Shown here one piece after another: positions 1,069 through 52,164 of a stretch of 57,450 bases of DNA. Position 1 is the stretch's first letter, and each line of letters begins with the position of its first letter. The position numbers and the translations under genes were made by a program. The notes under the pieces are model-generated. The model was not told the origin of the DNA. It was given only the letters and a program-made list of their open reading frames with translations, and did not search any database. The stretch covers positions 1 to 57,450 of the IMG/VR virus record IMGVR_UViG_3300035182_002025; one strand, written 5' to 3'. This DNA is from a virus. Lineage: Duplodnaviria > Caudoviricetes.

Positions 1069-1146
1069 GTTAAGATAATGTTCGCGGCCTTTACAGATAA
1101 TTCGAAGAAGGCCGCAGACAAAACCCTTATGCCATAGGAGATTTCG

Positions 1147-1605
1147 ATGGAGAGTTACATAAAAGAATACGCCGAGATACACTTGTTGGGGGTGAAAAGA
1201 GACTTGATACTTTACCCAGACCGGTACGAGTTCAGGAAGGACAGGCCCCCGCACCTACTGCAGAAGGCGGCGCTCTGGGTGCTTAAAACCCTAAGGTGCT
1301 ACAGCCAAGGCGAAGGTCAAAGCCTAGTGGCAATAAAGATTCACACCCCCACGTTCTTCGATAAGTTCAAAGTGCATTACAACCAGATGATGGGGGATTG
1401 CCGCGGCGAACCCAAATCGATACTTATAGGGGTCAAGCAGTTCGATGAGATCCGGGAGGAGAACTCGCAGTTCTGTGGCATGTTCAGTTTTAGCATGACC
1501 GATGACACTAAGTTTCGTCGCGGCAGGTACGGACCTGTTGACGTGTATGTCTTACCCTGGATGGACGGGGTGCTGGTGCTCCCACATTTGCTCAGGAACC
1601 CGTAG
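1147..1605 (+). CDS. Hypothetical protein
   Basis: 152-aa ORF with AGGAG RBS; no motif recognised. Confidence 0.65.
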   Translation: MESYIKEYAEIHLLGVKRDLILYPDRYEFRKDRPPHLLQKAALWVLKTLRCYSQGEGQSLVAIKIHTPTFFDKFKVHYNQMMGDCRGEPKSILIGVKQFDEIREENSQFCGMFSFSMTDDTKFRRGRYGPVDVYVLPWMDGVLVLPHLLRNP

Positions 1606-5732: not shown

Positions 5733-5760
5733 TTGACAAAAACGCGACACCTGCTATCCT
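5733..5760 (+). promoter_or_regulatory. Sigma70-like promoter for the tandem Zn-finger nuclease genes
   Basis: TTGACA (5733-5738), 16-nt spacer, TGc-TATCCT extended -10; GGAGG RBS downstream. Confidence 0.6.
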
Positions 5761-5790
5761 AATTCAAAAATATGAAGGAGGATAGCAGCT

Positions 5791-34721: not shown

Positions 34722-36616
34722 TGGCCACAGTAGATGCCTTAGTGAATGCGGCTGTAGACAGGGCAGATAGCTTCGCCTTGGCCGCGGCAGACGCCATAGC
34801 CTCAATAGACGCTCGTAAGGGCTCTATCGGCTACGCGCATATAGATATCTCTAACGACGAGATTTCTGCCAAATTTACGGCAGTCCCGGCCGATACAACG
34901 CCGATGCCTGTGTACGAGGACACTACAGTAGCCATGCCGTCCGCGCCTGCGCTGGCCGATCTGCACGGCATTACTCCTCCGGTACTGCCAGACGCACCCT
35001 CCATAAATACCTCCGGGCTATTTACGGCGGTCATGCCTAGCGCGGTCATGCCCGATTGGAATGAGGCCAACCCTGCGCTGCATGTCGACGACATTTACAA
35101 CGATCTAAAAAATCTTGCGGCACCGATACTGCAGGAGTTTGATTTCCCGACTATTACGCCGTTGAGCATACGACAAGCGCCAGAATTGGTATTGCCGGAA
35201 TATATCGCCGCAGACATACCGGATCAAATGCCAGACCCGTCAAATTATGCGGAGTACATGGAGAATAAGTACCGCAATGCGCTGCCGGAGATGAAGGCGT
35301 TTATCGACGACGTGGTCGAAGGCTGGGTGTCGAAATTTGCGCCCGAGTATTATGAACAGCGCGACACCATCCACGCCAAGATAATGTCCGGCGTGGAGGG
35401 CGGCGTTCTCCCAGACCAATTCGAAGAGGCCATGTACTCCAGGGCCAGAGACAAGGTCGAGAACGAGTATTCAGCCGCCGAGCTGACGATCCTTGAGCAG
35501 CAGGCCAAACGAGGTTTCGTGGTGCCGCCAGGGGCAGTGTTTGCCGGTTTGAACAGAGCGCGGTTGCAAGCGGCCGACTCCTTGTCCAACCAAGCCACAG
35601 ACATCTATATCGAGCGCAGGAAAACAGAGGTGCAGCACCTCCAGTTCGTGCTCAATATGGCGTCCACACAGATACAAGGCGTGCGAAGCTTGGCGATTCA
35701 GTATGCCAGTACCGGCCTGCAATTGATCGGCCAGTCCGTCAACTACGCCAAAGATTTGGCCGGTATGCTGGCCCAGACATTTGAGCACGTAAAATCCAAA
35801 CATGAGTTCTCGCTAGCGTTGATGAAAGCGCTTAACGAGCAGTACGAAACCCGATTGAAGGTGGCGATGGCCGGCCTGGAAGGGTACAAACTCGAGCTGG
35901 AAGCCGCCAAGCTTGTTAAGGACGTGGAGTTCAAGCAGGTCGAAGTGATCAAGGCCCAGATAGAAACCCAGACTGTCATGGTCAATCGGTACAGCGCCAT
36001 GGTCGACGCCATAGCCAAGCGCGCGGTAGTTGATGAGCTTAAAATTAAAGAGTACAGTGTGCGCGCCCAGGTATTCGAGACTCAAATTCGCGCCAAAGTG
36101 GCGGCGTTCGAGGCCTACAAAGCGGCCATAGACGGGGATAAAGCCAAGCTTCAAGGCGAGCTGGCTAAGTTGGAGATATTCAACTCCCAGTTGAAGGCTG
36201 CCGATCTAAGCGTCGAAGTGCAGTCGGAAATTTTGAAAGCCGATATCGAAACTAATCGCGCCAGAATTACCCAGTACTCGACCCAATTGGACGCCTACAA
36301 GATCGGATCGCAGATCGCCCTGCAAAAATTTACTGCTGGCGCTGAGATCAAAAAGCTTGGGCTGGAAATCTACAAGACCAACGTGGACGCCAACATTGAG
36401 ATTTACAAAGGGCAGCTACAGGCTGACCTTGCTTTGATAGAGGCCCGCATCAGCGCGTTCAAGGGCAACATCCAGTCCTTGGCGAACTTCTACGAGCTGC
36501 AACAGAAGTACACGCAGTTGGATCTTACAAAAACGGAAGCAATAGCAACCGGATTCTCTTCAATGGCGAGCTCGGCTCTCCAAAGCTTGGGCACTATGGT
36601 GTCGCAAGCGGCATAA
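34721..36616 (+). CDS. Long coiled-coil virion protein
   Basis: Pro-rich N-terminus then extended heptad-like helices; AKRGFVVPPGA motif. Confidence 0.7.
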   Translation: MATVDALVNAAVDRADSFALAAADAIASIDARKGSIGYAHIDISNDEISAKFTAVPADTTPMPVYEDTTVAMPSAPALADLHGITPPVLPDAPSINTSGLFTAVMPSAVMPDWNEANPALHVDDIYNDLKNLAAPILQEFDFPTITPLSIRQAPELVLPEYIAADIPDQMPDPSNYAEYMENKYRNALPEMKAFIDDVVEGWVSKFAPEYYEQRDTIHAKIMSGVEGGVLPDQFEEAMYSRARDKVENEYSAAELTILEQQAKRGFVVPPGAVFAGLNRARLQAADSLSNQATDIYIERRKTEVQHLQFVLNMASTQIQGVRSLAIQYASTGLQLIGQSVNYAKDLAGMLAQTFEHVKSKHEFSLALMKALNEQYETRLKVAMAGLEGYKLELEAAKLVKDVEFKQVEVIKAQIETQTVMVNRYSAMVDAIAKRAVVDELKIKEYSVRAQVFETQIRAKVAAFEAYKAAIDGDKAKLQGELAKLEIFNSQLKAADLSVEVQSEILKADIETNRARITQYSTQLDAYKIGSQIALQKFTAGAEIKKLGLEIYKTNVDANIEIYKGQLQADLALIEARISAFKGNIQSLANFYELQQKYTQLDLTKTEAIATGFSSMASSALQSLGTMVSQAA

Positions 36617-38276
36617 CGTATATGGCGTGCCCACAGTCATATATCCTCCGGTAGCCATTGGCGGTCATATTTTTACTTTCAGATAATTCAGGATCGAAAT
36701 TTTCCAATTTATCTGAAAGTTTATGTTTCTGGAACGCATACCTAGAGTACCTACGTTTATTTTTAACGTAGTGGTACGCGGGTCTGGAAAAACCTTTGAG
36801 CTTGAAACCTACGGCTTCGTAACCGGAGCCATCGAACAACCTCCTATCGCAAAAAGTTTTTACCCCAGCAGGAGAATATTTGCGGATAAAGTATTTAAGC
36901 AATTTTGAAAGTCCCCCTAAAACCTGAGTATTCAATTCGGTACAAAGTCTAACGAGCTCAAACCAACCTTTATCTAAGCCACCCACTGCGCGCCTTTGCG
37001 GTGAAAATGTCGCCACCATAATTAGTCTTTCTTCAAACAGCAGCCCTATCGATATGGGGGCATCGGCCCATCCCTGAATATGGTTTGCGTTCAAAAATTC
37101 TGCAGAGGAGGATTTATCCAATTCGGATATTTTAGTTTTTCTAGCAAACACCTTAGCTTTCGAAGTACCCAAGCGGTTCGATATTATGCTTTTTACTATA
37201 GGCTGTTTCGTATACCACTCGTCCTCGAATATCTGCACCAAGCCTAAACTTGCGGAAATGGCCCTATTTAATTTATCTAAATGGTATCTTGGGGGTCTAA
37301 AAGCGTCGGAGTGGAAATACAGCCCGCAAAATTCAAATCCTACTCGGGCATCTATCGCCAGACAGTCAATTTCGAAAGGGGATATCGCGGCTCTATCTGA
37401 GGTAACGGTATTAGCTATCGACGCTATGTATTCCGCCATTTCAATCTCCGGCCTAGAAGGCCCAGAAACAGAGCATAAAGGACACCCCTGCCCTTGAAGG
37501 TGCATGGCGGGCCTCTGAAAGAATTCACCGTGGGTGTTGCAGATAACCTTTACGTGCGTAACAGAGTCTACGTATTCGAGCTGGGAGTAGTCGTAAACCC
37601 CTCCATGTATAGCTTTGGCTTTACTTATAAAATCTGAAAATGTGTATCTAGTGGAATTTCCAGCGGCAGCCATGCCGCACTTAGCGCACCCTTTTCCTTG
37701 CAAATGGCTATTGGCTTCTTGCTCAAAAACTCCGTGGTCTTTACAAATAATTTTTACTTTAGATGTTGATTTTGAGTATTCAACGGCGGAGTAATCGTAG
37801 GTTCCGCCGTGTATTTCTTTGGCTTTCGCAATAAATGTTTCGGCAGATGATCTTTTAGCTTTTGCCCTAGCGGCTATACCGCATCTAGGGCAGCCTCCGT
37901 TTAAATGGTCAAAGGGGAGGGCGGATATTTGACCGTGGACAGCGCATCTGAAAGAAATCTTTGTGCTAGAGTTTACGTACGCCGTATCGGCGTAATCGAA
38001 TCTATCACCGTGGACGGTCTTAGCTTTAGCTATGAAGGATTCTGTTGTGAGGGTGTGCGATTTAGCGGACTTCTCTACCCCGCACTTAAAGCATTCACAA
38101 CCTCTAAGGTGATAATTTACCTGCTGTAGAAATTCACCGTGCTTAGGACAAACTATTCGCACTTTACCCGAAAGAGTCGCCACTTCAGTTAAGGAGTAAT
38201 CGTATTTAGTTCCGTGCTTTTCCCGAGATAGGGCGATGAATTCTTCAGTCGTAGGACATGTGCGCTTTACGCCCAT
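36594..38276 (-). CDS. Hef-like endonuclease paralog 3 (4 Zn-finger repeats + nuclease + GNAT-like domain)
   Basis: Four HG..(Y/F)DY..C..HG..C..C repeats; EIDC..GFEFCGLYFHS..FEDEW; ELVRLC..GGLSKLL..TFCDRR..YEAVGF. Confidence 0.8.
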   Translation of the reverse strand: MGVKRTCPTTEEFIALSREKHGTKYDYSLTEVATLSGKVRIVCPKHGEFLQQVNYHLRGCECFKCGVEKSAKSHTLTTESFIAKAKTVHGDRFDYADTAYVNSSTKISFRCAVHGQISALPFDHLNGGCPRCGIAARAKAKRSSAETFIAKAKEIHGGTYDYSAVEYSKSTSKVKIICKDHGVFEQEANSHLQGKGCAKCGMAAAGNSTRYTFSDFISKAKAIHGGVYDYSQLEYVDSVTHVKVICNTHGEFFQRPAMHLQGQGCPLCSVSGPSRPEIEMAEYIASIANTVTSDRAAISPFEIDCLAIDARVGFEFCGLYFHSDAFRPPRYHLDKLNRAISASLGLVQIFEDEWYTKQPIVKSIISNRLGTSKAKVFARKTKISELDKSSSAEFLNANHIQGWADAPISIGLLFEERLIMVATFSPQRRAVGGLDKGWFELVRLCTELNTQVLGGLSKLLKYFIRKYSPAGVKTFCDRRLFDGSGYEAVGFKLKGFSRPAYHYVKNKRRYSRYAFQKHKLSDKLENFDPELSESKNMTANGYRRIYDCGHAIYVMPLATP

Positions 38277-38310
38277 AGTAAACTCCAGTACAGTTAGCAG
38301 TATAATTGAA

Positions 38311-38360
38311 AGCGGAAATAGGTTACTGAAGCCTACTATCGCCCCGTCGGGCTATCCGCT
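38311..38360 (-). ncRNA. C4-antisense-like three-way-junction RNA
   Basis: Minus strand AGCGGA-TA-GCCC(GACG)GGGC-GATAG-TAGG(CTTCAGTAA)CCTA-TT-TCCGCT: closing stem plus two hairpins, as in phage C4 RNAs. Confidence 0.65.
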
Positions 38361-38367
38361 ACCGATA

Positions 38368-38396
38368 ATAGTCCTGCATACGAAAAGGATTGTCAA
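38368..38396 (-). promoter_or_regulatory. Sigma70-like promoter for the C4-like RNA and endonuclease paralog 3
   Basis: TTGACA (38396-38391), 17 nt, GACTAT (38373-38368). Confidence 0.65.
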
Positions 38397-38399
38397 TAC

Positions 38400-40289
38400 G
38401 TGAAGAACCGGTTTTTCGCATCGTCTAGCGCCTACGGCCTAATATTACAGGGCGACACTGCGGCCTGTAGCCAGTGGATAGGCTTTGCGCAAGGCCAATT
38501 GCAAGGTATTTTAGCCCGCCAGACAGGCCCAACCACGATACTGCTGGAGCCTAAACCCGGCGTACAAATACGGATAGACACAAGGCCGAATAAAATCAGC
38601 ATCACAGTAGCCGGGGGCTTGCTCATAACGGTTATGGACAAGGACAGTACTGTGGATTCAGCAGGCGGAACGGTGTCAACCGCACCTTTTCAGCCAAAAG
38701 ATATGCGCTGGATGTACTCTAAAAGTACAGTGTCCTCTAGAAAATCAAATTTTTATTCTGGGGGATTTAGCAAGTTTGGCAGCGGCAGCAGCTTTTCCCC
38801 TCCGTATTTTAGCCGGGGAGGATATTGGGTGGACGACGAAGGTGGAAAAGCCTTAAGTTGGGTCAGCAGAAAACCAAACGGCGCGGCCAATAATATGGTC
38901 AACACCTTATTCATAGGCGGCAAATACGGCTCCGTACCGTCTTCCGGCGGTAGGTACGTCACCTACGGGTGCATTGTAGATAAAACCACCCTGGGAGTGG
39001 CGCTTGCGGTAGACCTATCGATATACAGATATGTAGTAGCGCTGATATTTACTAACTACACCACTTCTGCCACCACGCTGGAAGTTTACGGGTGCAGTCC
39101 GACTGTAACCTCGGAATTTATACCGACTCAGATATCTACCACCGCTATAACTCTGCCAAGCGCTAATTTAACGGGGTTCAACGCTACAGCCAGGGAGATG
39201 GCGGCGTTAAGTTATGCAGGCGCAACACAGAGCGTGGACATACTGACTTTTAACTCTACGTATACGGGTTTTTCCAGCACCACGGAGTATTCCGCCACGT
39301 ATACTAGGGTAGAACAGACCTTCGAAATATCTGTAACACCTACTACCCCATTTTTTGACGCCTTCATGGAGCACGACCGTAGTACGGCCGTTATTTCAGG
39401 GGATCCGCTGGCCGTTCTAATAGCCGCTGATGGGAAAGGATTTTCAGTGTTAAGGGAGCAGGTGACTACCTATTCCGACAATTACCATGCGGACGAAAAA
39501 AACGTAGGGGATGGCGCGCTGTTCTCTGGGTATAGGCACGCCACAGACTCAAAAAATACCGCTGGGTACCTGGATATGATGTACCTCCAGACTGGAGAAG
39601 CCCCCGCATTCACGGCGACTTTTGGAGCGTATACGACGTCTGCATCTGGATTTGAGAACCTTGAATACGAGGCCTCTGCCGTAGACCCCTACATAACTTA
39701 TGAAAGGTCTACTACTGCCGTGAATAAATTCTACGCGATCCAGCACTTTTCAGCGAGAACAGGTAGCGCCATATTTGTTGAAATTACCAACACCGAAACC
39801 TCAACTGATACTAGCGTAGTGAGATTAGGTTCAAACGATACGGAATACTCTATTACGACAGATAACGCCAAGGAGACAAAAGTGCGAGTACTTGATGGCG
39901 GGGTTTTTAGGACTATAAAAACTACTACCGACACGTTCTCCTCTTCGGATACCGGGGTGCTTTTCGGCACACAATCTACGGCCATAAACGATGTGCTAGC
40001 CGATATATCCTCTGATCATTCGCCATCCATCACTGTCTCTGACGCAGGATCTCTAGTATCCAGCAGGGATAATTTAGCGGGAACGGCGGCTACAGCCACG
40101 CTGGTTATGTCGAATATTACAGTGCCGTATAACGCTAGCGGGAACACGTTCGCTGAGTATGGCGTAACGGTAATAGCGGATATCCCTAGCGCTACGCAGG
40201 TGTTATTAGAGTACAGGTTAGATTTAGACCCGGCGTATTCTAGCGGGGGAATAACGTCCCCTATTAGCGTAACGCAAAAATCTTTTTAA
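38400..40289 (+). CDS. Ser/Thr-rich putative virion protein
   Basis: 629-aa ORF in the tail module; no catalytic motif seen; start uncertain. Confidence 0.65.
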   Translation: MKNRFFASSSAYGLILQGDTAACSQWIGFAQGQLQGILARQTGPTTILLEPKPGVQIRIDTRPNKISITVAGGLLITVMDKDSTVDSAGGTVSTAPFQPKDMRWMYSKSTVSSRKSNFYSGGFSKFGSGSSFSPPYFSRGGYWVDDEGGKALSWVSRKPNGAANNMVNTLFIGGKYGSVPSSGGRYVTYGCIVDKTTLGVALAVDLSIYRYVVALIFTNYTTSATTLEVYGCSPTVTSEFIPTQISTTAITLPSANLTGFNATAREMAALSYAGATQSVDILTFNSTYTGFSSTTEYSATYTRVEQTFEISVTPTTPFFDAFMEHDRSTAVISGDPLAVLIAADGKGFSVLREQVTTYSDNYHADEKNVGDGALFSGYRHATDSKNTAGYLDMMYLQTGEAPAFTATFGAYTTSASGFENLEYEASAVDPYITYERSTTAVNKFYAIQHFSARTGSAIFVEITNTETSTDTSVVRLGSNDTEYSITTDNAKETKVRVLDGGVFRTIKTTTDTFSSSDTGVLFGTQSTAINDVLADISSDHSPSITVSDAGSLVSSRDNLAGTAATATLVMSNITVPYNASGNTFAEYGVTVIADIPSATQVLLEYRLDLDPAYSSGGITSPISVTQKSF

Positions 40290-40356
40290 GGAGCCCGCTA
40301 ACCGGAAACAGGGAGGAGTCTGTTGATGGACCGATTAGCAGGCTAAACTTTAAGCT

Positions 40357-43242
40357 GTGAGCCGTCGCGACTTTATCGTAAAATGCGGCGAACCGCAACC
40401 CGAACGTGATGTTCGCACGTACCCATTTGAGGATAGCTCGATGCCAAGACCAGCCCCTGAAGACACTGTACCCGCCATGCTTGCCCCCGGGGAAGCAGTT
40501 CTCAATAAAGAGGCCTCCGACTTGGTGGGGCGAGGTGTAATCGCTGCCGCCAATAAGGCAGGGCTGGAGGTGCGCAGAAAAGGTATTGTGCCACAAGCGG
40601 ATTGCACTGGCCCTGTTCCAGTCCATGTGCCGGCGCAAGGCTATGTTGACGGGACAGAATCGGTCCACCCAGATTACTCAGCGACAACCTTGTTGTCAGG
40701 TCAGGCTACTCCAGAAGCTATTGCCGGTCATGAAGTTAAGGACAAGCTCGCTTCAAAAGGCCAGAATTTTTACGGTAACACGGCTGCGCCTGCTACCCCT
40801 GTGCAGGGCTACTCCGAAGGCGTTTCTGACGTGCCGGACCCAAACAGCAATAACTTCGTCAATCAGTCTACCGGTGTAACGACATTAGGCGGCGGGGCAA
40901 ACGGGCAGTCTACCGCCAACAAATACGCCAACATCGCGCAGCCTATGTACGGTACCCCAGGCGTATCAACAGGCCCGGCCAATAATGATCTTGCCAAGCA
41001 AAATTTCGGCGCCCGTGCGCAAATGGACCAAGCCATCAGCTATGGTAAAGCAGGCGGTATGGACGCCGCATCAGGCATCATGAAAGATATCGGTAAGAGT
41101 AAGCCAAAAGGGCTGGCGCCGACCTTTGCGCCTATGCCAAGTCTAGGTACCTCTGCGCGAGTTGATCTGGGCGGATTCACCGACATCCAGGGGTTTAATG
41201 ACGGCACCGCAAAAGTCGGCGATCTGCCCGACATGCAAAAAGTAGCCAACCAAATCAAATACCCAGAGGCCAACCAGCCCGGAACGCCAAACCAGACTCA
41301 CGGTTTTACCGGCGATCCGCACGCCCCTGAGCCGCAGCCTATGCGCCCCGGCCCAGCCGGAGCACCTGAAGGCGCTTACACGTCAAAATTTACGCTCAAC
41401 GGCCAGAACATGTCTGGTCCTGGTACCGATTTAGTTCCGGCAAAAAGCGCCGGTATCGTACCGTCCAGGCCAGTAAAAAGACCAGTACCTTTGGCGCAGC
41501 CAGTCACCGGGCCTTACCGCAACGTAACTTTTGACCATCCTGTAGCGGCGGGCAAACAGCTTGCTCCTGCGGGGAAAGGCCAGATGGCACCACAAGGGGA
41601 GGCGTACGTTAACTACGAAGAGTCCGCTACCATGAAGCCTCAGCAGTTTCGCCCAGGCCCTGGAGGAGCCCCCGTTGGGGATTACGAAGTAAACTTCGCC
41701 AATGACGGCCGCGTAGCAGGGCAAAAAGCTTTGCCGGCCCCAGAAGCGCCTCCAGCCGCTGCGGCGCAAGGGTATTCGGCGGAGGAATTGGCGGCCCTGG
41801 ATAAAGTAAAAGCGGCCGGGAGAGCTCGTGTTGACGCTATTAAAAACGGTACCGCTCAGCCGTCTGCAGGGCCGGCGCCTGCCGCCGCTGAAGCCGCTCC
41901 GGCCGCTCCGGCCGAATCATCCCCCGCACAGTCTCCTAAAGCTTCGAAGATCCCAGGAATTGTTGGCGCTGCGGCGGCATTGACTGCAGGGTATAACAAG
42001 CTAAAAGAGAACGTCCAAAAACCGGACGCCTTTTCTCTTACTAAACCGTTACCCTCCAAAGAGCAGTTGCGCGCTAATATCCGTAGTAGCCTAGACGAGC
42101 AAAAAGCAAACCTGGAAAAGCCATCCGAGTTTTCTAACGTGAAGGCCTCTATGCAGGACATGGGCTACGGCCCAGTACCCGCGGCACTCGGTGCGGGAGC
42201 GGTACGTTTAGCGGATCAGGTTGCGCCTATGGTAGAAGGGGGTAAACAGATGGCCCAAGACGTAGCGGGGCTTTTCAAAACGCCAGACGCTACGCCAGCA
42301 CCAAAAGGCACTGTCACTAAATTGGTAGAGCCGGCGGTACAGCAGCCTGCCCCTGAAGCGCAGGATCAAACTCCGGCCGGCACAACATTCGCGCCTGCTA
42401 GATATACGCCTGAAGACATTAATGGCCAATCTCGCGTTAACATCGATGAGAAAAATTACGTCCAGTCTGCCGACAAGGCTGGTATGTCCAGGGTCGCTGC
42501 GGGGCTGCAGGATCGGGAGAAGCGCGGAATAAACTTCCTACCGCCAAAACAATCTGACGCGGCGACCAAAGCGGGTACCACTGACTTTTGGATGAACCGC
42601 GGATTACCCGGCGGCGCAGCCCAAGACGCGCAGCAAAAACAGCTTGCGCAGATTCAGGACATAGCCTTGAACGGTGGCGGCAGGGGCGACATGACCGTGT
42701 CCCAATACCGTAACGCCAACGCGCGCCAGAAGGTCGCCCAAGGCATTTTGGCCGACCTAACTCGTGCCGGCACAGAGCGAGATAAAATGGCGGTCGACAA
42801 AGAAACGAACGCCAATGTCCGTGAGCAAAATGCGCTGGAGAAAAAAGCGTCCCGAGACTTGAAGGAGCGCGAGCTTAAGCAGAGCGCCACGCAACACGCC
42901 GATACCATTGCGCAGAAGAAAGAATCCGACGAGAATAAACTGATCACCGCGCAGTTCGGTGATGAGAAGCGGACGATTCGCCAGGGCGATTACCCTGCTG
43001 AGCAGGCTAAGTTCGAAAAAGCTCAGCTTTCTCAAAATATTGCGGCCAGGACAAAAGCGCTGGACACTACGTTTACCTCGCAAGATTCTGCGTATGATCA
43101 AGCCCTGGCAGAAGCGTTGCCGGAGTATGCCAAAGCGAAAGCGTTCCTTAGTGATTCCAGGCTCACTCCCGAAGAACGGGCCAGTGTACAATCTCGCATA
43201 GACGCAATTAAAACAGAGCATGCCGGAGCACTTAATGGCTGA
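40357..43242 (+). CDS. Putative internal virion/ejection protein (start may be ATG 40441)
   Basis: DTVPAMLAPGEAVLN motif; repeated QG(Y/F).(D/E)G...V; low-complexity P/A/Q/G; coiled-coil end. Confidence 0.7.
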   Translation: MSRRDFIVKCGEPQPERDVRTYPFEDSSMPRPAPEDTVPAMLAPGEAVLNKEASDLVGRGVIAAANKAGLEVRRKGIVPQADCTGPVPVHVPAQGYVDGTESVHPDYSATTLLSGQATPEAIAGHEVKDKLASKGQNFYGNTAAPATPVQGYSEGVSDVPDPNSNNFVNQSTGVTTLGGGANGQSTANKYANIAQPMYGTPGVSTGPANNDLAKQNFGARAQMDQAISYGKAGGMDAASGIMKDIGKSKPKGLAPTFAPMPSLGTSARVDLGGFTDIQGFNDGTAKVGDLPDMQKVANQIKYPEANQPGTPNQTHGFTGDPHAPEPQPMRPGPAGAPEGAYTSKFTLNGQNMSGPGTDLVPAKSAGIVPSRPVKRPVPLAQPVTGPYRNVTFDHPVAAGKQLAPAGKGQMAPQGEAYVNYEESATMKPQQFRPGPGGAPVGDYEVNFANDGRVAGQKALPAPEAPPAAAAQGYSAEELAALDKVKAAGRARVDAIKNGTAQPSAGPAPAAAEAAPAAPAESSPAQSPKASKIPGIVGAAAALTAGYNKLKENVQKPDAFSLTKPLPSKEQLRANIRSSLDEQKANLEKPSEFSNVKASMQDMGYGPVPAALGAGAVRLADQVAPMVEGGKQMAQDVAGLFKTPDATPAPKGTVTKLVEPAVQQPAPEAQDQTPAGTTFAPARYTPEDINGQSRVNIDEKNYVQSADKAGMSRVAAGLQDREKRGINFLPPKQSDAATKAGTTDFWMNRGLPGGAAQDAQQKQLAQIQDIALNGGGRGDMTVSQYRNANARQKVAQGILADLTRAGTERDKMAVDKETNANVREQNALEKKASRDLKERELKQSATQHADTIAQKKESDENKLITAQFGDEKRTIRQGDYPAEQAKFEKAQLSQNIAARTKALDTTFTSQDSAYDQALAEALPEYAKAKAFLSDSRLTPEERASVQSRIDAIKTEHAGALNG

Positions 43243-46200
43243 TTCAGATAGCATTATCGATACGCTTTCCGCTAAGTATGGGGCGCAATCCCCCGAAAGT
43301 GAAACGCCATCCTCTCCTATTGATACGCTCGAGCAGAAGTATGGGGCGGCAGATACTTCACCCGTTCGAGGCACCCTGGCCGAGGTAGGAAGACAGGTAG
43401 GTGCAGGCGCCGTCGTAGACCTTCCGGAAATGACCGGTAAAGCTATTCAGGCGTTATCGCCTACGGACAGCGGCGTCAATCGGTTTGGTAAGGAAATGCG
43501 CGAAAACGCAGAGGCTAGGGCGCCTGGATGGGAGCCTGATCTGCGTGACAAAGGTGAGGTGGCCCAGGCCGCCATACGCGCCGGTAGAGCCATCCCAGCC
43601 AGCGTGGCGCCCATAGCTTTGAGTGCAGTGCCCGTTGTAGGGCCAGAGTTATCCCTGGCTGCGACCGGCGCGCTGTTCGGCGGTAGCCAATACCAAGACA
43701 CCTACGAAAAATTAATTAGCGAAGGCGCATCGCCGGAAGAGGCAAAGGAGGCCGCTTTAGGTACTGCGGCTACCCAGGGTGGCGGCGAGATGATCGCCAA
43801 CAAACTTACCGCCGGGGTATTAGGCGCTGGCAAAAACGTAGCGGCCAATACGATAGGTGGCCTTACCGGCCAGTTAACTGAAAAGGCCGCGTTGAAAACC
43901 GCGGCTAAAGATTTCGGAAAGGCTTATGCGGCTGATCTGGTCGGCGAGCCCGCCACAGAGATTGCGCAAGACACCGCCACAGAGGCCATAGAGCGCGCAT
44001 ACGGCGCTAACCCTTCTACTGGGTACGGTGACATCGCGTACCAATCAGGTACGACTGCGCTGGCCATGGCGGCCTTGTTAGGCCTTCCTGGCGCCGGTGG
44101 ACACTACGCCAACCACAAACGCGCCGAATTAATAGACCAGACCTTAAACGATCCGGCCTCGCCAGAAAGCGCCAGACTGGCGGCTGTCAACGGCATTTAT
44201 AACCGCGCGCAATCGCAAGGTATCCAAGACGCCGACGAATGGCGAGCTGGCGCACTTGAAGATATTGCGGCCGGCAGACCGATTCGCCGTGATACCGCCT
44301 CTATTCCGGCAGCCGCTGTCGCCCAACAGCAGGCGGAACAAAGCGCAGCCCCTGTGGTACCGGAACCAAATGCCCCTCAATCCGTTCCGGAAACTATCGC
44401 CCCGGCTCCCGTACCGGAGCAAGCTGCAGCACCTATAGTTCCGGAGCAAGCCGTTACACCCGAAGCTCCAGCCCCGGCAGAACCCGATCTGAATGCTGTT
44501 AAAAATTTCGTGTCTGCGCAGGAGGCACGCTGGGCTAACACGCCTGATAGGCCAAGGGGCACTAACCCAGCCATGCGCAACGTGGCGACAGACTTAGGCC
44601 TGGATCCGAAAGCGTTTACCAGTGCAGAAGATTTGATGGGCGCTATAAAACAGCGCGTCAGCGATATCGAAACGCCTGCGCCAAAAACTCCAGGCCAACA
44701 AGTGGCTGAGGATATAGCGGGCAAAGGCACTATCAGTGACATGCTGGCAGGGCATCCAGAAATTCTGGATACCGATATGAGTATGCAACAGGCAGCGGCT
44801 CAGGCTGAAGAGCAAGCTGCCGCGGCTGGAGCGCATCCAGAACAAGTTGAACGGGCCGCAGGCGAAGAGCAAGCGCCGGTATACGTCGACGCTACTACAG
44901 GCGAGATCCTTGACGGGGCTATCTCGGAAGAAAATGCCTACTCGCCAGAAAAAATAGCCGCTTTAGACGATGCAACGCTGTCGGCGCTTTCCAAAAACTT
45001 ATCCGGCCAAAGGCTGGCCGCGGTCCAGCAAGAGTTGTTACGCCGTAAAGCGGCAGGAGGCGAGAATGCCGAGCAAATCCCAGGCGCAGGCCAAAATGAT
45101 GTCGGCGGTGGCGCACAATCCGAAGTTCGCGGAGAAGGTGGGGATACCCCAGTCGGTGGGCCTGGAGTTCCACCAAGCAGACAAGAAAGCGGGAATATTC
45201 AACAAGAGCAATCCGAAACACCCATACCACAGGAGGTAACTGAAAATGGCAAAAGCGAGAACCCAACCACGCAAGAAACAGCCGCCCAAGAAGAAATAGC
45301 GGCGGGCGACTACGCTCCGGCAGCAACTTTGTCCGAAGCGGCGAACGCTACTGAGGCGGCCAAAGCGGATACCCCCGAGCAGGATATTCAGAACGGCGAC
45401 TACACTAAGGGAGTTTCCGCAGAATACGCCGGATTGCCTATCGCCATAGAGAACGCCGCCGGATCACAACGTACCGGTACTAGCCCTGACGGTAGGCAAT
45501 GGTCGCAAACAATGCGCGATCACTACGGCGAGATTGTCGGTGCGGAAGGTGCAGACGGCGATCACGTAGACGTATTCGTTAATCCGAATGGCGCGGTTAC
45601 CAAAACAGCATTTGTCATCGATCAGGTAGACCCTAATACTGGCCTATTTGACGAGCACAAAGTGGTGCTCGGGTACCCAAATAAAACCGCAGCCGCGCAG
45701 GCGTATTTAAGCAATTACGAAGAGGGGTGGAAGGGTCTGGGAAGTATTACCGGGATGACCTTGCCAAACTTCAAAAAATGGTTGGCTACGCAGGATACTA
45801 CCAAACCTGTGACATCTACGGCGAAAGTAAAAACGGAGAATCATGTCGCCGCCGCAGCAGAGCCTAAAGAGTCCGGTGAAGGTCAAAGGCTGGAATCTGC
45901 CAGACAAGCGCTAATATCCGCCGTACCAGACGGAAATTTGGAGATGCTTTTTGGCGCAAAGCTGGGTAAAACTCGCCAGCAGCTAATGCGGATACTTACT
46001 GGCGACCCTAAATGGCCCGCCAATAAATCCGGCATGTCCTGGTTACGAGACACGTTTTATAAAATGGCGGGTATACCTGACGGTTACGCAGCGGCAGTTC
46101 GGCAGGACGCTTTTAAATCTTGGGCGAAAGGTCAATCCGATTCTACAGAGCCCCCGACGCCTCTTCCTGAAAGCGCACCACGGGCGGCCACTTCTGTAGC

Positions 46201-46402
46201 CGACAATAGCAGAGCGCTGGAAACTATCTTCGCCAAAATAGACACCACTCACCCTAACCCGGCTGAATTGCGCGAGATGTTGAAAGACAACCCGTTCAAA
46301 GAGCAGATCACGTACGTAGTCGACCACGGCTTCGAAATTTTCCAAGACTTGTTGAAGTCTGATAAAAACCCGAATGGGAAGGTAGAAAGAGTATGCCCGT
46401 AA
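43235..46402 (+). CDS. Large ejection-type polyvalent protein with InPase (inorganic pyrophosphatase-like) domain
   Basis: Gly/Ala-rich helical N-half; IAIENAAGSQRTG...WSQTM.DHYG.I....GADGDHVDVF...DQ....FDEHKVVLG; GGAG RBS before ATG 43235. Confidence 0.85.
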   Translation: MADSDSIIDTLSAKYGAQSPESETPSSPIDTLEQKYGAADTSPVRGTLAEVGRQVGAGAVVDLPEMTGKAIQALSPTDSGVNRFGKEMRENAEARAPGWEPDLRDKGEVAQAAIRAGRAIPASVAPIALSAVPVVGPELSLAATGALFGGSQYQDTYEKLISEGASPEEAKEAALGTAATQGGGEMIANKLTAGVLGAGKNVAANTIGGLTGQLTEKAALKTAAKDFGKAYAADLVGEPATEIAQDTATEAIERAYGANPSTGYGDIAYQSGTTALAMAALLGLPGAGGHYANHKRAELIDQTLNDPASPESARLAAVNGIYNRAQSQGIQDADEWRAGALEDIAAGRPIRRDTASIPAAAVAQQQAEQSAAPVVPEPNAPQSVPETIAPAPVPEQAAAPIVPEQAVTPEAPAPAEPDLNAVKNFVSAQEARWANTPDRPRGTNPAMRNVATDLGLDPKAFTSAEDLMGAIKQRVSDIETPAPKTPGQQVAEDIAGKGTISDMLAGHPEILDTDMSMQQAAAQAEEQAAAAGAHPEQVERAAGEEQAPVYVDATTGEILDGAISEENAYSPEKIAALDDATLSALSKNLSGQRLAAVQQELLRRKAAGGENAEQIPGAGQNDVGGGAQSEVRGEGGDTPVGGPGVPPSRQESGNIQQEQSETPIPQEVTENGKSENPTTQETAAQEEIAAGDYAPAATLSEAANATEAAKADTPEQDIQNGDYTKGVSAEYAGLPIAIENAAGSQRTGTSPDGRQWSQTMRDHYGEIVGAEGADGDHVDVFVNPNGAVTKTAFVIDQVDPNTGLFDEHKVVLGYPNKTAAAQAYLSNYEEGWKGLGSITGMTLPNFKKWLATQDTTKPVTSTAKVKTENHVAAAAEPKESGEGQRLESARQALISAVPDGNLEMLFGAKLGKTRQQLMRILTGDPKWPANKSGMSWLRDTFYKMAGIPDGYAAAVRQDAFKSWAKGQSDSTEPPTPLPESAPRAATSVADNSRALETIFAKIDTTHPNPAELREMLKDNPFKEQITYVVDHGFEIFQDLLKSDKNPNGKVERVCP
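45066..45239 (+). CDS. Nested (+1 frame) small basic protein, 57 aa, MPSKSQAQAKMMSAVAHNPKFAEKVGIPQSVGLEF...
   Basis: AGGAGG at 45055-45060; resembles a small phage protein family I recognise as MPSKS.AQ..MAAVAHNP.FAKKVGIPQSV..EF. Confidence 0.72.
   Translation: MPSKSQAQAKMMSAVAHNPKFAEKVGIPQSVGLEFHQADKKAGIFNKSNPKHPYHRR
45246..45299 (+). CDS. Nested (+1 frame) Lys/Arg-rich peptide MAKARTQPRKKQPPKKK
   Basis: AGGAGG at 45231-45236; same frame as, and 6 nt after, the first nested ORF. Confidence 0.5.
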   Translation: MAKARTQPRKKQPPKKK

Positions 46403-46893: not shown

Positions 46894-49800
46894 ATGGCCG
46901 GCCCCTGCAAATACCGCTTTACAGATAAAAATGGAAACGAGGTAGAGTTGGGGCTTTCAGCCTTCAAGGCGTACCTAGCCGATGGGGGTCTTGAACAGTT
47001 TTATCCGGCAAAAGATTTTCCGTGGCAGGCTCAATTCTCTAGGCCTGCAGCGCTCCCTGAAAAGATCAACATTGATGGCAAAGAGCGCTGGACGGTCAAC
47101 AGTTCTGGCCGTCCCATCGCCAGCACCGAAGAAGCCGTTCGCAACTTTTGGAACTGGTTTACAGACAGCCAAGTTGTAGACGATCAAGGCAGACCGATTG
47201 TGGTCTACCACGGCACAACCCACGATTTCTCAAAATTCGACATAGGTCAGGCCGGCCAAAAAGATTCAGGCTGGTACGGCACCGGCATTTACGTAACGCC
47301 AGACGCCAACACGGCCAGCGCTTACGCAGACTACGATCAAGAGGCTACCGGTCAAAACGTCATCCCGATGTACGCCAAGATCGAGAACCCGTTCATCTGG
47401 TCGCGAGATATTAAGCCGTCCGGGTCAAAACCCATCAGCGATGACTTCACTCGACTGTTCAAGAACGCGGGCCACGATGGGGTTTTTGCAGAAAATAAGT
47501 ACGCAGCGCCAGAGCACCAGAAATGGTACGAGATGGTCGTATTCCATCCAGAAAACCTAAAAGCTGCATACGGAAACAACGGTAACTTCAGCGCGGAAGA
47601 TACCGATATTCGGTATTCGCGAAACGCGAATACTTCTGGCGAACGTATATCGGAGGCCGATGCCGCACAACACCTGAAAGACAATTTCGGTGTTGGCATT
47701 GATAATCTGATCCGCCAAAAAGTTTTAAACTTCACGCACGGTAAAGCTACGTGGCCTGAGAACGCCAGGAACGCCGCCAGAGGCGATGAAGAAGCGGTCT
47801 ATACGAACGGTAAGGCATACATCGATTTGGACGCCACCGGCAAAGGTCGGCTGAATGCTGTGGTATTACACGAACTCGGCGAGCACTACGGCCTGCAGCG
47901 CATGTTGGGCGAGCAAGCCTACAAGTCTTTGCAGCAACAAGTGATCGCCAGGGCAAAAATACCAGGGTCAAAAGCCGCTGCGGTTTGGGCATCCGTAAAA
48001 GCGGATTACGGCCATTTAGAAGAAGGCAGCCCAAAATTCGTGGCCGAAGTGATCGCCAAGTTAGGTGAAAACGATCCTAAAGCGCCATGGTTCCGCCGCC
48101 TACTTTCCCAGATCAAAGCGTTCTTGATGCGTATGGGTTTGGCTAGGGGGCTGACGGCTGGCACCGTCACAGAATCTGATCTACACGACTTATTACGGGC
48201 CAGCTTGCAGCGCGCTGCCAGGGGTTACGTAAAAGACGACGTCCAGGTATTTGGCGGAAATCCGCAACCCGCGTTCAGTGCTTTAAAATCTTCTGCTTCA
48301 TGGACCGCCGAAAGAATAGACTCATTATTTGGGAACTTTGCCTATACGATGGACGACGATAAGACAAAAGCTTTCGCAGGATTTGTATCCCCTGAAGAGT
48401 TCCTGGACGCTACTACCACCCCCACGCTATTAGCGCAAATAGAGTCGGAATCGAGGCCACTATCCGTAGAAGATATGCGGGATGAGCGCCAGCCTATAAT
48501 ACTGTTCGGTGACTACGACGGAACCACCTTTACCACGGACGGGCATGAGGGGCGGCATAGGATGGTAGCTCTGCGAGATAGCGGCGTAAAAAAAGTCCCA
48601 GTCGTATTTCACATAGGGCAAGGGAAGAAGCTATTTGCAGTTTCGAACGTAAATGTTACGGGCCAATATATTTCAGGTTCTGCTAAATCCGGAGGTGAGG
48701 TATACGGTAGGGGCTTCAAATTGCCTGAAGCTATCCCGATAAATTACGCCAATAAAGCGCGGGTAGAAGCATTTTTCGGCGTAGATTCGGACGCACAGTT
48801 TTCTCGCCCTAGTTTGGAGGCCGTCAAGCAGCGCATACTGCGCAATGACCAAGGCGACCCTACGCTCACCGCCCAGGCCATCAGAAAGCTTGAGGAAAAG
48901 TGGGGCGCTGTTACCAAGCAGCGTTTCGCCGCGCTTAGCGTCAGGCAGATGGTCGAGTACGCCAAACGGATCATGCCTGGGTTGGAGTCGTATCAGATCC
49001 ACATGCAACAGCGGGAAGCCACCGTTAACTCGATATTGCGGGTAGCGGATCGGTTAGTATCCGAGGTGTGGAAAAAGTTACCTTTGCGCGTTCAGAAAGA
49101 TTTGGCCGCCGTCATGCACGGATCAACTATCGCCGACATAGACGCCTCCAAAGCTTGGACTGGCACTTTTAAAAACGCGGCCGATACCGGTCAGGTTATG
49201 GGCTTCAACGCCTATACCCAGGAGGCCTTTACCCCTGGTAGAAAAGCCGCGCTGTTAAAGCTGGCTATCGATAACGGGGCGCTGAAACAGCATGACGACA
49301 AGGAAGGCACTGACGATCCTACGCTGTACCTTGATCGGAACGGGTACCTGTTCAAAACAGAGGCCCAGGCAAAAGCTTTCGTGCTGCGCATCCAGGAAAT
49401 GATAGACGCGCAGCGCAAAGATAGATCCCGTATCGGCGCGCCAGACGAGAATATTAACCGCCAGAACGAGCACGCCAGAATAGTGCCACTGTACGAGGCT
49501 CTGGATCCAAAAGCCCAGTACGTGTACGCCGAATCCAACCGCCTGCACAACGACATCTCTTCGCGCAGGCTGGAGGTCCTGTTGGAGCGCATCGGCAGTG
49601 CAATCGCCAACGGGCAAAAGCGTAAGCAATTGATCGCGCAAATGCGCGCGCAGTTCGAATCGAACTCACTCAACTGGTATTACGCCCCGCTGTCGCGTTT
49701 CGGTGAGTTCTGGTTCTACGGCAAGGACAAAGACGGCCAAAAACGCTTCAGCACCTACGAGTCTGATAAAGCGCGCAATGAAGCCGTTAAGAATTACGTG

Positions 49801-52164
49801 GCCGCCGGCAATGAGCTCGTGGGCCAAGGTAAATCGATGTCAGGTTTGAGCCTACTTGAAGGTAAAGCCCCTTCAGACGATTTCGTGCTTAAGATTCAGG
49901 AGATGATCAGCGGCATCAGCGATATGCCTCAGGAATCCAAGGTTAAAATACAGGACCAAATTTACCAGATGTATCTGGAAACCCTGCCAGATGTATCGGT
50001 AAGGCATAACCGCATGCACCGTAATGACACCCTTGGCTTCGAGGAAGACGCCATGCGGTCATTCTCTAACTCTCAGCACCATGGCGCCACCCAGTTGGCG
50101 AACATGCTCCACGGCGGCGATATGAAGGCCGTGTTGGAAAAACACATTGAGGCCAAGAAATTGGCTGAGCGCCCAGACACTCAACAGTACCTGGACACAG
50201 AGAACGAGGCTGCCGAACTGCTTAAAGATCGGTGGGACGAGTTAACACCCGAGGCTTTGCGCGACATGCTGGCCGGATTCGAAGAGCCCGCTGCCGACGA
50301 TAAAGTATTACGTAAAGCCCAAGAGCTCAGGAGCAAGCTGTACGGCATGAACGCCGATGAAGCCGGCGATGCCCTTGACCGTATAGTAATAGCCAACGAA
50401 GAGCTGACCACCGCGGCTAAACTCATCAAAAAAGAGGACATCAACCGCGCCAGCGATGTGCTGGACGAGCTGCTGAAAACCTACGATTTCATGGTGAATT
50501 ACAACAGCACCGAAATGGATAAGGTGGCCTCCTCCATCAACCAGATGAACTTCATCGGGATGCTGGGCTTCAGCTTGTCGTCTGGCCTAGTCAACTTGAT
50601 CCAAACGCCGGGTGTCGCTATGCCGGTGGCATCTGGGCGCTACGGTGTCGGCGCAACCCTGCGGGAGTTCGGAAAAGCCTATCGGGAATTCATGAAAGCG
50701 TTCTCGCAGAAAAAATACGACGTGGACGGTAACGCCTCCATCTCTGCGCTGCTCCAGGAGCAGTTAGACGCCCTAAAAGCGCGACCAAATTCTAGCGCTA
50801 ACGAGGCTGAAATTCAGAGAATCGACGAAGAAATTTGGGCTATGGAAAAGTTCAAAGAGTTCGGAGACATCTCGCGCACCAGAACCTCTGACATCATGGG
50901 GGTTGCGCAAGAGGGCGCCACCTACGGCGGTAAGTTCCACGATTTTGCGCTAAAAGCCGGCTGGATGTTCCACCACGGCGAAAGGTTCAACCGCGAGGTT
51001 ACCTTGATGGCGAGTTTTAGAATGGCCCTGCAAGGTAATGCCGAATTAGGCGTTCCTCCGCTGGGGAAAGAAGCCGCGCTAGATTACGCGCGTAACGTCA
51101 ACAATCGTTCGCACTTGGACTACACGTCAGAGAACGCTGCGCGCATATTCCGAGGCCCTTTGGCCAAGATCGCCTTGCAGTTCAAAAAGTACCAGCAGGG
51201 CATGCTGTACTTGTGGACTCGTACAGCTATCGACGCATGGTCTACGGTAAAAGAAGAAAACTTCGATACCAAAGCGGCTTACGAATTCGCTGTTGCGGAA
51301 ATGCGTGAGTCTCGCAGAACCTTCTTTGCGCTGTTGGCTATGCAGGCGTCCACCGCCGGCATGTTCGGGCTGCCTATGATGGGCATGGTCGGCGTAGCGT
51401 ATAAGATGATCGCGCAAGCTTTCGGCGACGATGACGATCCGCACGAACTGGAAAAGGACTTGCGCCTGGGCCTGGGTAAGCTATTCGGTCAAACCGCCGC
51501 AGAGGCCATGTCTAAAGGCGTGGTGAATACCTTTACCCCTATCAACTTGGCGTCCAGGCTTGATCAGAAAGACGTGTTCTTCCACGAGCCTATGAAAGAG
51601 CTGGAGGGTCGTGATGCCGGTCAGAATTACGTGGCGGCACTGTTCGGCCCAACCGGTGGCACCGTCGAAAAGGTGTTCCAAGGTATGTCTTACCTGTCAG
51701 ATGGGTACTACGGCCGGTTCCTAGAGTCCATAATGCCCAAAGCGGTGGGCGATATAGCCAAGGCCGCACGGTTCTCAGCCGAAGGCGCCAAAACGCTAGA
51801 CAACATGCCTTTGAAGGACATGTCGGCGTTCGAAAGCTTCGCCCAGGCGATGGGTTTTGGAAGTTCAGGGCTGGAGCGTAAATACGCCGAACGTGGCTTC
51901 GCCAAAGGCGAGGAAGCGGCGATAAAAGATACCCGCACCAAAGTTATGCGGGAGGCTGCGTGGGCCAAGGTGAAGGGCGAGCAGCCTGATATGCAGGCTA
52001 TACGCGATTGGAACATGAAACACCCTGAAAAGAAAATCCTGCCGGAGCATTTATCCGCTTCGGTCAAGGGCATCAAAGAGAGTGTCAAGAAACGCCAAGA
52101 GCGCGGATACGTTGTCGATCCTAAGTTGGAATACTTGTACGAAGAGAACGATCTGCCGGAATAA
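46894..52164 (+). CDS. Giant polyvalent protein: ART-PolyVal ADP-ribosyltransferase, zincin-like metallopeptidase, ParB-like and PLxRFG domains
   Basis: FWNWF.DSQVVD..GRP.VVYHGT...GIYVT..ASAYA; VVLHELGEHYGL; HEGRHRMVAL; YAPLSRFG; helical C-terminus. Confidence 0.85.
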   Translation: MAGPCKYRFTDKNGNEVELGLSAFKAYLADGGLEQFYPAKDFPWQAQFSRPAALPEKINIDGKERWTVNSSGRPIASTEEAVRNFWNWFTDSQVVDDQGRPIVVYHGTTHDFSKFDIGQAGQKDSGWYGTGIYVTPDANTASAYADYDQEATGQNVIPMYAKIENPFIWSRDIKPSGSKPISDDFTRLFKNAGHDGVFAENKYAAPEHQKWYEMVVFHPENLKAAYGNNGNFSAEDTDIRYSRNANTSGERISEADAAQHLKDNFGVGIDNLIRQKVLNFTHGKATWPENARNAARGDEEAVYTNGKAYIDLDATGKGRLNAVVLHELGEHYGLQRMLGEQAYKSLQQQVIARAKIPGSKAAAVWASVKADYGHLEEGSPKFVAEVIAKLGENDPKAPWFRRLLSQIKAFLMRMGLARGLTAGTVTESDLHDLLRASLQRAARGYVKDDVQVFGGNPQPAFSALKSSASWTAERIDSLFGNFAYTMDDDKTKAFAGFVSPEEFLDATTTPTLLAQIESESRPLSVEDMRDERQPIILFGDYDGTTFTTDGHEGRHRMVALRDSGVKKVPVVFHIGQGKKLFAVSNVNVTGQYISGSAKSGGEVYGRGFKLPEAIPINYANKARVEAFFGVDSDAQFSRPSLEAVKQRILRNDQGDPTLTAQAIRKLEEKWGAVTKQRFAALSVRQMVEYAKRIMPGLESYQIHMQQREATVNSILRVADRLVSEVWKKLPLRVQKDLAAVMHGSTIADIDASKAWTGTFKNAADTGQVMGFNAYTQEAFTPGRKAALLKLAIDNGALKQHDDKEGTDDPTLYLDRNGYLFKTEAQAKAFVLRIQEMIDAQRKDRSRIGAPDENINRQNEHARIVPLYEALDPKAQYVYAESNRLHNDISSRRLEVLLERIGSAIANGQKRKQLIAQMRAQFESNSLNWYYAPLSRFGEFWFYGKDKDGQKRFSTYESDKARNEAVKNYVAAGNELVGQGKSMSGLSLLEGKAPSDDFVLKIQEMISGISDMPQESKVKIQDQIYQMYLETLPDVSVRHNRMHRNDTLGFEEDAMRSFSNSQHHGATQLANMLHGGDMKAVLEKHIEAKKLAERPDTQQYLDTENEAAELLKDRWDELTPEALRDMLAGFEEPAADDKVLRKAQELRSKLYGMNADEAGDALDRIVIANEELTTAAKLIKKEDINRASDVLDELLKTYDFMVNYNSTEMDKVASSINQMNFIGMLGFSLSSGLVNLIQTPGVAMPVASGRYGVGATLREFGKAYREFMKAFSQKKYDVDGNASISALLQEQLDALKARPNSSANEAEIQRIDEEIWAMEKFKEFGDISRTRTSDIMGVAQEGATYGGKFHDFALKAGWMFHHGERFNREVTLMASFRMALQGNAELGVPPLGKEAALDYARNVNNRSHLDYTSENAARIFRGPLAKIALQFKKYQQGMLYLWTRTAIDAWSTVKEENFDTKAAYEFAVAEMRESRRTFFALLAMQASTAGMFGLPMMGMVGVAYKMIAQAFGDDDDPHELEKDLRLGLGKLFGQTAAEAMSKGVVNTFTPINLASRLDQKDVFFHEPMKELEGRDAGQNYVAALFGPTGGTVEKVFQGMSYLSDGYYGRFLESIMPKAVGDIAKAARFSAEGAKTLDNMPLKDMSAFESFAQAMGFGSSGLERKYAERGFAKGEEAAIKDTRTKVMREAAWAKVKGEQPDMQAIRDWNMKHPEKKILPEHLSASVKGIKESVKKRQERGYVVDPKLEYLYEENDLPE

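Follow-up and report, generated by a model that had tools for sequence, protein, structure and literature searches.

An int-alpA-type RNA leader with a loop complementary to two downstream sites precedes a homing-endonuclease-type gene in a phage genome

A phage nuclease gene that lies within a block of virion genes on the opposite strand raises the question of what governs its expression. Such a gene (36594..38276, minus strand) is present in a 57,450-nt stretch of DNA, hereafter the window, which comprises positions 1 to 57,450 of IMG/VR record IMGVR_UViG_3300035182_002025 (Duplodnaviria; Caudoviricetes). Upstream of its start codon lies a branched RNA structure with a loop complementary to the gene's own ribosome-binding site (RBS). 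What is this RNA, and what might its loop do? An examination of the locus by eye (the sequence-only reading) had proposed a C4-like RNA serving as a safety catch on the nuclease, both forming a self-contained mobile cassette. Our analyses reveal that the leader is a new, divergent member of the int-alpA family rather than a C4 RNA. Its loop is complementary to two downstream sites, one of which includes the Shine-Dalgarno sequence, and this double complementarity is found widely in the family, suggesting a switch that may act in cis on translation.

All elements of the sequence-only reading (promoter, junction, loop, complementary sites and ATG) are indeed present on the minus strand, to which all leader coordinates below refer. 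The three-way junction spans 50 nt (38360-38311) and is supported by folding, by covariance models and by compensatory changes. P1 has six base pairs (AGCGGA/UCCGCU, 38360-38355/38316-38311), P2 pairs GCCC with GGGC around a GACG loop (38352-38349/38344-38341), and P3 has six base pairs (38337-38332/38322-38317) capped by the loop CUUCAGUAA (38331-38323), which would be the pairing loop and a putative anti-Shine-Dalgarno element. The junction UA, the P2 hairpin and the adjoining GA make up a 16-nt core, TAGCCCGACGGGGCGA (38354-38339), that is unique in the window. The 34-nt tail that follows P1 holds UACUG and UACUGGAG. Alone, the junction has a folding energy of −18.4 kcal/mol (z −2.05; 10 of 200 shuffled sequences fold equally well), and the tail folds on itself weakly (−1.3 to −3.6 kcal/mol), no better than its shuffles. 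Because these single-sequence statistics are modest, the weight of our argument rests on comparison, specifically on compensatory changes in two related contigs, L131 and L133, and on covariation throughout the family.

The family was identified by covariance-model searches. Scanning the window against Rfam at gathering thresholds returned no match, and a permissive scan of positions 38150-38750 returned only int-alpA (RF02996), at 26.8 bits against a gathering cut-off of 35.8 bits, with an E-value of 0.0021 over these 601 nt and of 4.7e-5 over the whole record. Sub-threshold int-alpA matches at E≤10 occur in seven of 14 control genomes, and matches over the cut-off in none of them. The C4 model (RF01695) appears in neither scan, and when the whole record was searched with it at E≤10, six candidates were scored and none matched; by this measure the proposed C4-like identity fails. 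The int-alpA alignment covers the complete model (positions 1-71 of 71), forms all three helices and includes the exact run UAGCCCGACGGGGCGA. The conserved int-alpA core, UAGCCCGACG(u)GGGCGA, is represented by the exact 16-mer. Moreover, the Rfam consensus itself contains a complementarity between the P3 loop and the 3′ tail (CCuUua ... uaAgGG, an implied pseudoknot), which in the window takes the form CAGUA/UACUG, five base pairs. The context that gave the motif its name, between integrase and alpA genes, is absent at this locus, where the leader heads a nuclease gene inside the virion-gene block.

A scan of IMG/VR recovered the exact 16-mer in at least 120 viral loci. In 105 of the 122 instances listed, which include the window's own locus, a P1 of at least five contiguous pairs flanks the core at the expected distance; a few loci look like chance matches (for example, L011/L117 and L057/L078). 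When 20 core loci were sampled, 19 passed the int-alpA cut-off with 35.9-66.1 bits, while L014 was not listed. Thus the 16-mer marks the catalogued int-alpA family, and the window copy is a divergent member. We also built a covariance model from 72 non-redundant loci, with the window excluded from training. It scores the leader at 46.3 bits (E 9e-13) and the next best site in the window at 9.2 bits, although part of the higher score arises by construction, because the 16-mer was used to collect the training set. The UA dinucleotide followed by a 4-bp P2 resembles U8-A9 plus the D arm of tRNA. This idea was dropped, as ARAGORN finds no tRNA in the window, and among 75 aligned leaders none in standard mode and two in mitochondrial mode. 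The int-alpA motif reportedly stems from a 2017 survey by Weinberg et al. The term 'alpA' does not occur in the main text of that survey (PMC5737381). A literature search for 'int-alpA' found the name among Rfam hits or as a gene order, and yielded neither a functional description nor a published account of a second complementarity between loop and Shine-Dalgarno sequence.

Comparison of related phages shows how the leader and its gene came to be located together. Four viral contigs (L129-L132) encode relatives, 53-66% identical, of the gene upstream of the nuclease locus. In three of them (L129, L130 and L132) this relative directly adjoins a homologue of the gene starting at 38400, and the site is therefore empty. 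In L131, a 617-amino-acid nuclease, 47% identical to that of the window, lies on the opposite strand between the flanking genes and is preceded by a leader that scores 40.9 bits with our model. The GC content is 0.43-0.48 over positions 36600-38400, compared with 0.51-0.57 upstream. On the basis of the filled and empty sites and this difference in composition, we recognize a mobile cassette of about 1.8 kb with a free-standing nuclease gene, extending approximately from 36617 to 38399 on the minus strand and carrying its own promoter and leader. The self-contained mobile cassette of the sequence-only reading is thereby borne out. The genes that flank it in the window, ending at 36616 and starting at 38400, are 1.78 kb apart. 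At the empty site of L132 (6898-6906), TAGTG contains both the stop codon of one flanking structural gene and the overlapping start codon of the other, suggesting that the two are translationally coupled.

A fifth contig, L133, was found by a pattern scan and carries a junction sequence identical to that of L131. It represents the same genomic site, judging from an adjoining homologue of the upstream gene and from the conserved start of the divergent gene. At positions 583-1208 (plus strand) of this contig, the leader heads a 179-amino-acid protein that matches phrog_559 in its central part only (E 1.8e-5), shows no BLASTP similarity to the window's nuclease and has no significant Pfam domain. 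At this locus the coding part was apparently exchanged or degraded behind a leader that remained where it was. Other searches for relatives yielded little: megablast of positions 36000-40500 gave no match to cultured phages, a sensitive blastn search with the leader yielded nothing beyond a 26-nt match in an Arthrobacter phage (E 10), which we take as chance, and a metagenome scan with a pattern for this lineage gave none.

The leaders of the window, L131 and L133 differ on both sides of five of their 16 base pairs. P1 exhibits a change from C-G to U-A and one from A-U to U-G, P2 (part of the otherwise invariant core) one from C-G to U-A, and P3 two changes from G-C to C-G that turn GG/CC into CC/GG. 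In the three-leader alignment 93.8% of cells are paired, and one of 500 shuffles does as well. Among these compensatory changes the loop is identical in all three leaders, TACTG and ACTGGAGTTTAC form invariant islands in an otherwise variable tail, and ACUGGAGUUUAC, which lies within the Shine-Dalgarno target, is likewise unchanged. The start codons are ATG in the window, TTG in L131 and GTG in L133. Two additional structures were rejected: a P4 hairpin that is weak in the window lineage and no better than its shuffles, and an extended 16-bp alternative pairing that appears in minimum-energy folds, yet is broken in L131 and L133 by the GG to CC change in P3. A functionless chance structure in a divergent promoter region would be in keeping with the modest single-sequence statistics. 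However, the compensatory changes in relatives, the 46.3-bit match to the family model and the covariation seen across the family leave this explanation with next to no probability.

The two targets of the P3 loop differ considerably in strength. Site 1, the proximal UACUG (38302-38298), begins 9 nt after P1 and can form five base pairs with CAGUA of the loop. Site 2, UACUGGAG (38290-38283), can form eight base pairs (one G-U) with CUUCAGUA of the loop and contains the Shine-Dalgarno sequence GGAG (38286-38283), 6 nt before the ATG (38276-38274). Both the complementarity of the loop to the RBS and the second UACUG upstream of it had been pointed out in the sequence-only reading; the former is retained in L131 and L133 despite the compensatory changes in the stems, and it covaries across the family. 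Among shuffled tails, a loop match of at least five base pairs arises in the proximal region in 32% of cases, whereas an 8-bp match at the RBS arises in 0.4%, or in 5% if GGAG is held in place. Calculated duplex energies, which exclude pseudoknot loop penalties, are −9.4 kcal/mol for site 2 versus −4.4 kcal/mol for site 1 in the window, and −8.3 versus −6.8 kcal/mol in L131 and −8.3 versus −4.9 kcal/mol in L133. The P2 loop GACG is invariant and has no downstream complement, and only the P3 loop has such partners.

Both the helices and the pairings of the loop were compared across the family. In 75 aligned leaders, 92.4% of the cells assigned to helices are paired, compared with 59.8% after shuffling and 37-49% when the partners are slid out of register. 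Cells changed on both sides number 425 versus 147 after shuffling, a value that none of 500 shuffles reaches, and such changes are seen in all nine P1 pairs and all five P3 pairs. Nearly all leaders are arranged alike: a −10 box is followed by P1, the core, P3 and P1′, then by a short A/U-rich linker, a loop-complementary stretch and a small hairpin that presents the Shine-Dalgarno sequence. This sequence, too, is often complementary to the loop.

We measured this double complementarity in 67 non-redundant leaders with an assigned start codon, counting gapless loop matches of at least five base pairs. The leader's own loop matches the proximal region in 76% of cases and the 15 nt before the start codon in 82%, compared with 21% and 38%, respectively, for loops permuted among leaders. 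Both targets are matched in 67% of the leaders, compared with 14% for permuted loops and a maximum of 28% in 1000 permutations. Mean run lengths at both targets likewise exceed those in all 1000 loop permutations. The geometry is also regular, with site 1 lying a median of 8 nt after P1, and site 2 lying 14 nt past site 1 and ending 7 nt before the start codon. The energies of the two duplexes differ by no more than 1 kcal/mol in 34 of the 67 leaders; the Shine-Dalgarno duplex is the stronger in 23 and the site-1 duplex in 10. For these energies, the site-1 mean of the permuted-loop control was spoiled by cases that form no duplex, and the run-length permutations were used instead. One contig, L031, carries two int-alpA leaders on its minus strand (349-425 and 714-789) that are 364 nt apart and have different P3 loops, each with its own downstream match; one heads a 49-amino-acid open reading frame (ORF) and the other an HNH_3 endonuclease.

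Where transcription begins bears on what such a leader could do. In 71 leaders, 34 −10-like hexamers fall in the eight positions 10-17 nt before the junction UA, whereas 16 fall in the 37 positions upstream, suggesting that the motif normally begins at or next to the transcription start. In the window, the promoter proposed in the sequence-only reading, TTGACA-17-GACTAT, exists as sequence, and its −35-like hexamer (38396-38391) is separated by 3 nt from the divergent gene's GTG (38400). However, its −10 element GACTAT (38373-38368) agrees with only three of six consensus positions, and our promoter scan did not list the site because the paired −10 is weak. An overlapping candidate, TATTAT (38370-38365), agrees with five of six positions at 20 nt from the −35 and aligns with the TATACT/TATAAT boxes of L131 and L133.

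A start this close to the junction would also suit a 5′ stabilizer. In such a scaffold the site-1 pseudoknot would lock the junction and protect the 5′ end of the mRNA, leaving the Shine-Dalgarno sequence exposed and giving a positive effect on translation, and site 1 would resemble the Shine-Dalgarno region only secondarily. The presence of the loop/site-1 complementarity in the Rfam consensus is consistent with this view, as is the small hairpin, which encloses the Shine-Dalgarno zone in 61 of 67 tails yet leaves the zone on average only 41% paired. On the other hand, the loop matches and covaries with nucleotides 5′ of the Shine-Dalgarno core (UACUG-GAG) that ribosome binding does not need, and in the window lineage the RBS pairing is the more stable one. 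We therefore regard a purely stabilizing or translation-promoting role as unlikely.

With a probability of roughly 0.6, we favor the interpretation that this divergent int-alpA-type leader, at the 5′ end of a homing-endonuclease mRNA, acts in cis as a two-state translational switch. We infer action in cis from the covarying double complementarity, the fixed geometry and the position at the 5′ end of the transcript. When the P3 loop is paired with the decoy at site 1, the RBS would be free, and when it is paired with site 2, the RBS would be blocked. Since the decoy would be transcribed first, a brief window of translation on the nascent RNA is possible, after which the resting state would hold nuclease translation down. 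Net repression is expected in the window copy because its RBS pairing is calculated to be stronger than its decoy pairing, and on these modelled energies the earlier notion of a safety catch is plausible. The structure, the family, the covarying double complementarity and the mobility of the cassette are demonstrated here; that control is exerted in cis, which way it runs and what balances the two pairings are inferences.

The near-equality of the two duplexes in half of the family raises the possibility that something else decides where the loop is placed. The invariant core (UA, P2 and the purine-rich junction) might bind a universal cellular factor or small molecule; indeed, the 16-nt core is exact across contigs with a motif GC content anywhere between 0.41 and 0.75, whereas P1 and P3 vary freely. 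Strict core conservation could reflect a partner, but it could also reflect tertiary folding alone, and no result indicates a ligand or protein. Moreover, the invariance is in part a product of collecting loci with the exact 16-mer, and in L131 and L133 the core does change, by a compensatory pair. Such a signal-sensing switch is conceivable, though we assign it a low probability. A broader version, in which int-alpA-type leaders are portable and programmable two-state switches on phage add-on genes whose core senses a universal signal, and hence a riboswitch-like class rather than small RNAs (sRNAs), is just as doubtful. If it were true, a freely evolvable loop would toggle between decoy and RBS, and the sensed signal would be a ligand, the ribosome or a protein.

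Action in trans has precedents that invite comparison. In P1 and P7, the structured C4 RNA is encoded ahead of its target within one operon and uses short loop-target pairings, one of them at the RBS. It is a processed, stable, trans-acting RNA of about 77 nt with two loops (a′ and b′) that pair with two downstream target boxes. By analogy, the junction could be cut out as a stable small RNA that represses the nuclease, and possibly other genes, in trans. The layout is indeed similar, in that a structured RNA precedes its own target and two complementary sites occur on one transcript. In addition, Rfam types int-alpA as 'Gene; sRNA', and c4 RNA is described as trans-acting and repressing Ant synthesis (PMC8546580).

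Nevertheless, several observations argue against such an antisense RNA. The record lacks a C4 match, as described above, and one pairing loop is present here where C4 has two. No terminator-like feature is listed after P1, where four of the next eight bases are U. Other complements of the loop in the window occur at chance frequency (six TACTGRAG sites, two of which are the element itself, versus 2.5 expected), and the search for trans targets in the window was abandoned on this count. Also, the two leaders of L031, with different loops each matched to its own site, fit a cognate, cis-type specificity. We consequently give a trans-acting antisense RNA little chance.

Several findings weigh against the two-state cis switch, or at least limit its reach. 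The int-alpA score of the window copy falls short of the Rfam cut-off, our own model's score owes much to the 16-mer, and the whole 97-nt leader folds no better than its shuffles (z −0.99). In the window, site 1 taken alone is at chance level, being equaled by 32% of shuffles. The alignment used for the pair counts was fitted to the model's structure and hence favors that structure, and start codons across the family were assigned heuristically. Pyrimidine-rich loops are frequent in the family, and for this reason even permuted loops match 38% of Shine-Dalgarno windows. One group of leaders with the loop AUCACUCAA has a clear site 1 and no match of at least five base pairs at the Shine-Dalgarno sequence, so that the second pairing is common but not universal. 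Genes headed by the leader also include replication, terminase, ParB-like and unknown ones, so that it is not a safety device specific to nucleases. None of seven distant homologues of the window's nuclease carries it, nor does a paralogue at 5791-7311 in the same window, and the idea that the leader travels with the nuclease family was dropped.

This range of partners is evident from 81 distinct N-terminal protein fragments encoded downstream of core-bearing loci. A PHROG match at E≤1e-5 was obtained for 32 of them, leaving 49 without one. The best match is an HNH, GIY-YIG or other endonuclease family in 18 of the 81, including seven with phrog_374 and two with phrog_559, and an endonuclease VII family appears as a lower match in two more. 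Other matches include primosomal/DUF1376, replication initiator, ParB-like, terminase, Rha-like and membrane proteins, and alpA was not identified among the 81. Since the downstream genes are so diverse, the leader is modular and not tied to one protein.

The gene headed by the leader in the window encodes a free-standing protein of 560 amino acids, in which four zinc-finger-like repeats are followed by a nuclease-type C-terminal half. Its PHROG matches are strong (phrog_559, 'HNH endonuclease', E 3.7e-145; phrog_3339, 'homing endonuclease', E 1.1e-89). Pfam offers only sub-threshold matches to the zinc-finger-type DUF4379 and DUF723 and no significant domain in the C-terminal half, and a sequence search of the PDB with the protein gave no match. 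On account of the Pfam results, 'endonuclease', the term used in the sequence-only reading, is upheld as a PHROG family label and does not extend to a catalytic class. An E-F-x-G-x-x-x-H-type motif in the protein presumably resembles those of Vsr/DUF559-type nucleases.

The 560-amino-acid ORF is the sole long, non-overlapped minus-strand ORF within the plus-strand block 3614-52164, which encodes terminase, portal, baseplate-like and other virion genes. Between its ATG and the GTG of the divergent plus-strand gene lie 123 nt, and an AAGGA sequence is located on the plus strand about 10 nt upstream of that GTG. Two very large proteins encoded in the block (43220-46402, 1060 amino acids; 46894-52164, 1756 amino acids; both plus strand) have DarB-like antirestriction PHROG matches, the shorter one also matching endolysin-type families, and they may be ejected or internal virion proteins.

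The paralogous nuclease gene (5791-7311, plus strand) directly follows that for the terminase large subunit. Its 506-amino-acid product is 43% identical to the first nuclease and belongs to the same PHROG family. Upstream of it, a hairpin of 10 base pairs (5751-5760/5779-5788; −20.3 kcal/mol, z −6.73) covers AAGGAGG, and the −10 element (5755-5760) of a TTGACA-16-TATCCT promoter lies inside the 5′ arm of this hairpin. Just past the gene, at 7334-7341 on the plus strand, TACTGAAG forms a perfect complement of the leader's P3 loop, 17 nt into an ORF that starts at 7317.

The int-alpA motif is widespread and has no described function in the literature searched, and the window locus provides a compact, testable case with a 6-bp P1, a single loop, a 5-bp decoy and an 8-bp RBS target. 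Two natural relatives show the stems changing while the loop and both targets stay fixed, and the paralogue uses a classical hairpin instead. If the switch is real, selfish nucleases and other add-on genes would arrive equipped with a translational throttle of their own, and the leader would constitute a small programmable part for gene control.

How does this leader compare with known systems? It resembles P1/P7 c4 in outline, as a structured RNA upstream of its own target with short loop-target pairings that include the RBS. It differs in having no RF01695 match, a single pairing loop and a different downstream gene, and the C4 analogy of the sequence-only reading is therefore reasonable in working principle and fails in membership. 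With int-alpA it shares the order P1-UA-P2(GCCC GACG GGGC)-purine junction-P3, the exact core, a P3 loop complementary to the 3′ tail, and occurrence in phage and mobile-element DNA. Unlike the int-alpA model, it has a shorter P1 (6 bp) and UAG instead of AAAAG in the junction, and it precedes a homing endonuclease within a virion-gene block instead of lying between int and alpA.

A further parallel is found among T4-type homing endonuclease genes, for which RBS sequestration is a documented form of control (I-TevI, I-TevII, I-TevIII, segB and Aeh1 mobE; PMC2988022). As in those genes, RNA pairing at the Shine-Dalgarno sequence would restrain a selfish nuclease. In the T4-type arrangement, the Shine-Dalgarno sequence is part of a simple stable hairpin whose 5′ arm contains a promoter. 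This arrangement is absent at the leader and present at 5751-5788, where the paralogue is predicted to use the classical RBS-hairpin design described for T4 I-TevI, segB and Aeh1 mobE. Whereas an internal late promoter bypasses the simple hairpins of the T4-type genes, the leader studied here would achieve its control through a branched junction, a remote loop and a decoy, placed at the very 5′ end of the transcript.

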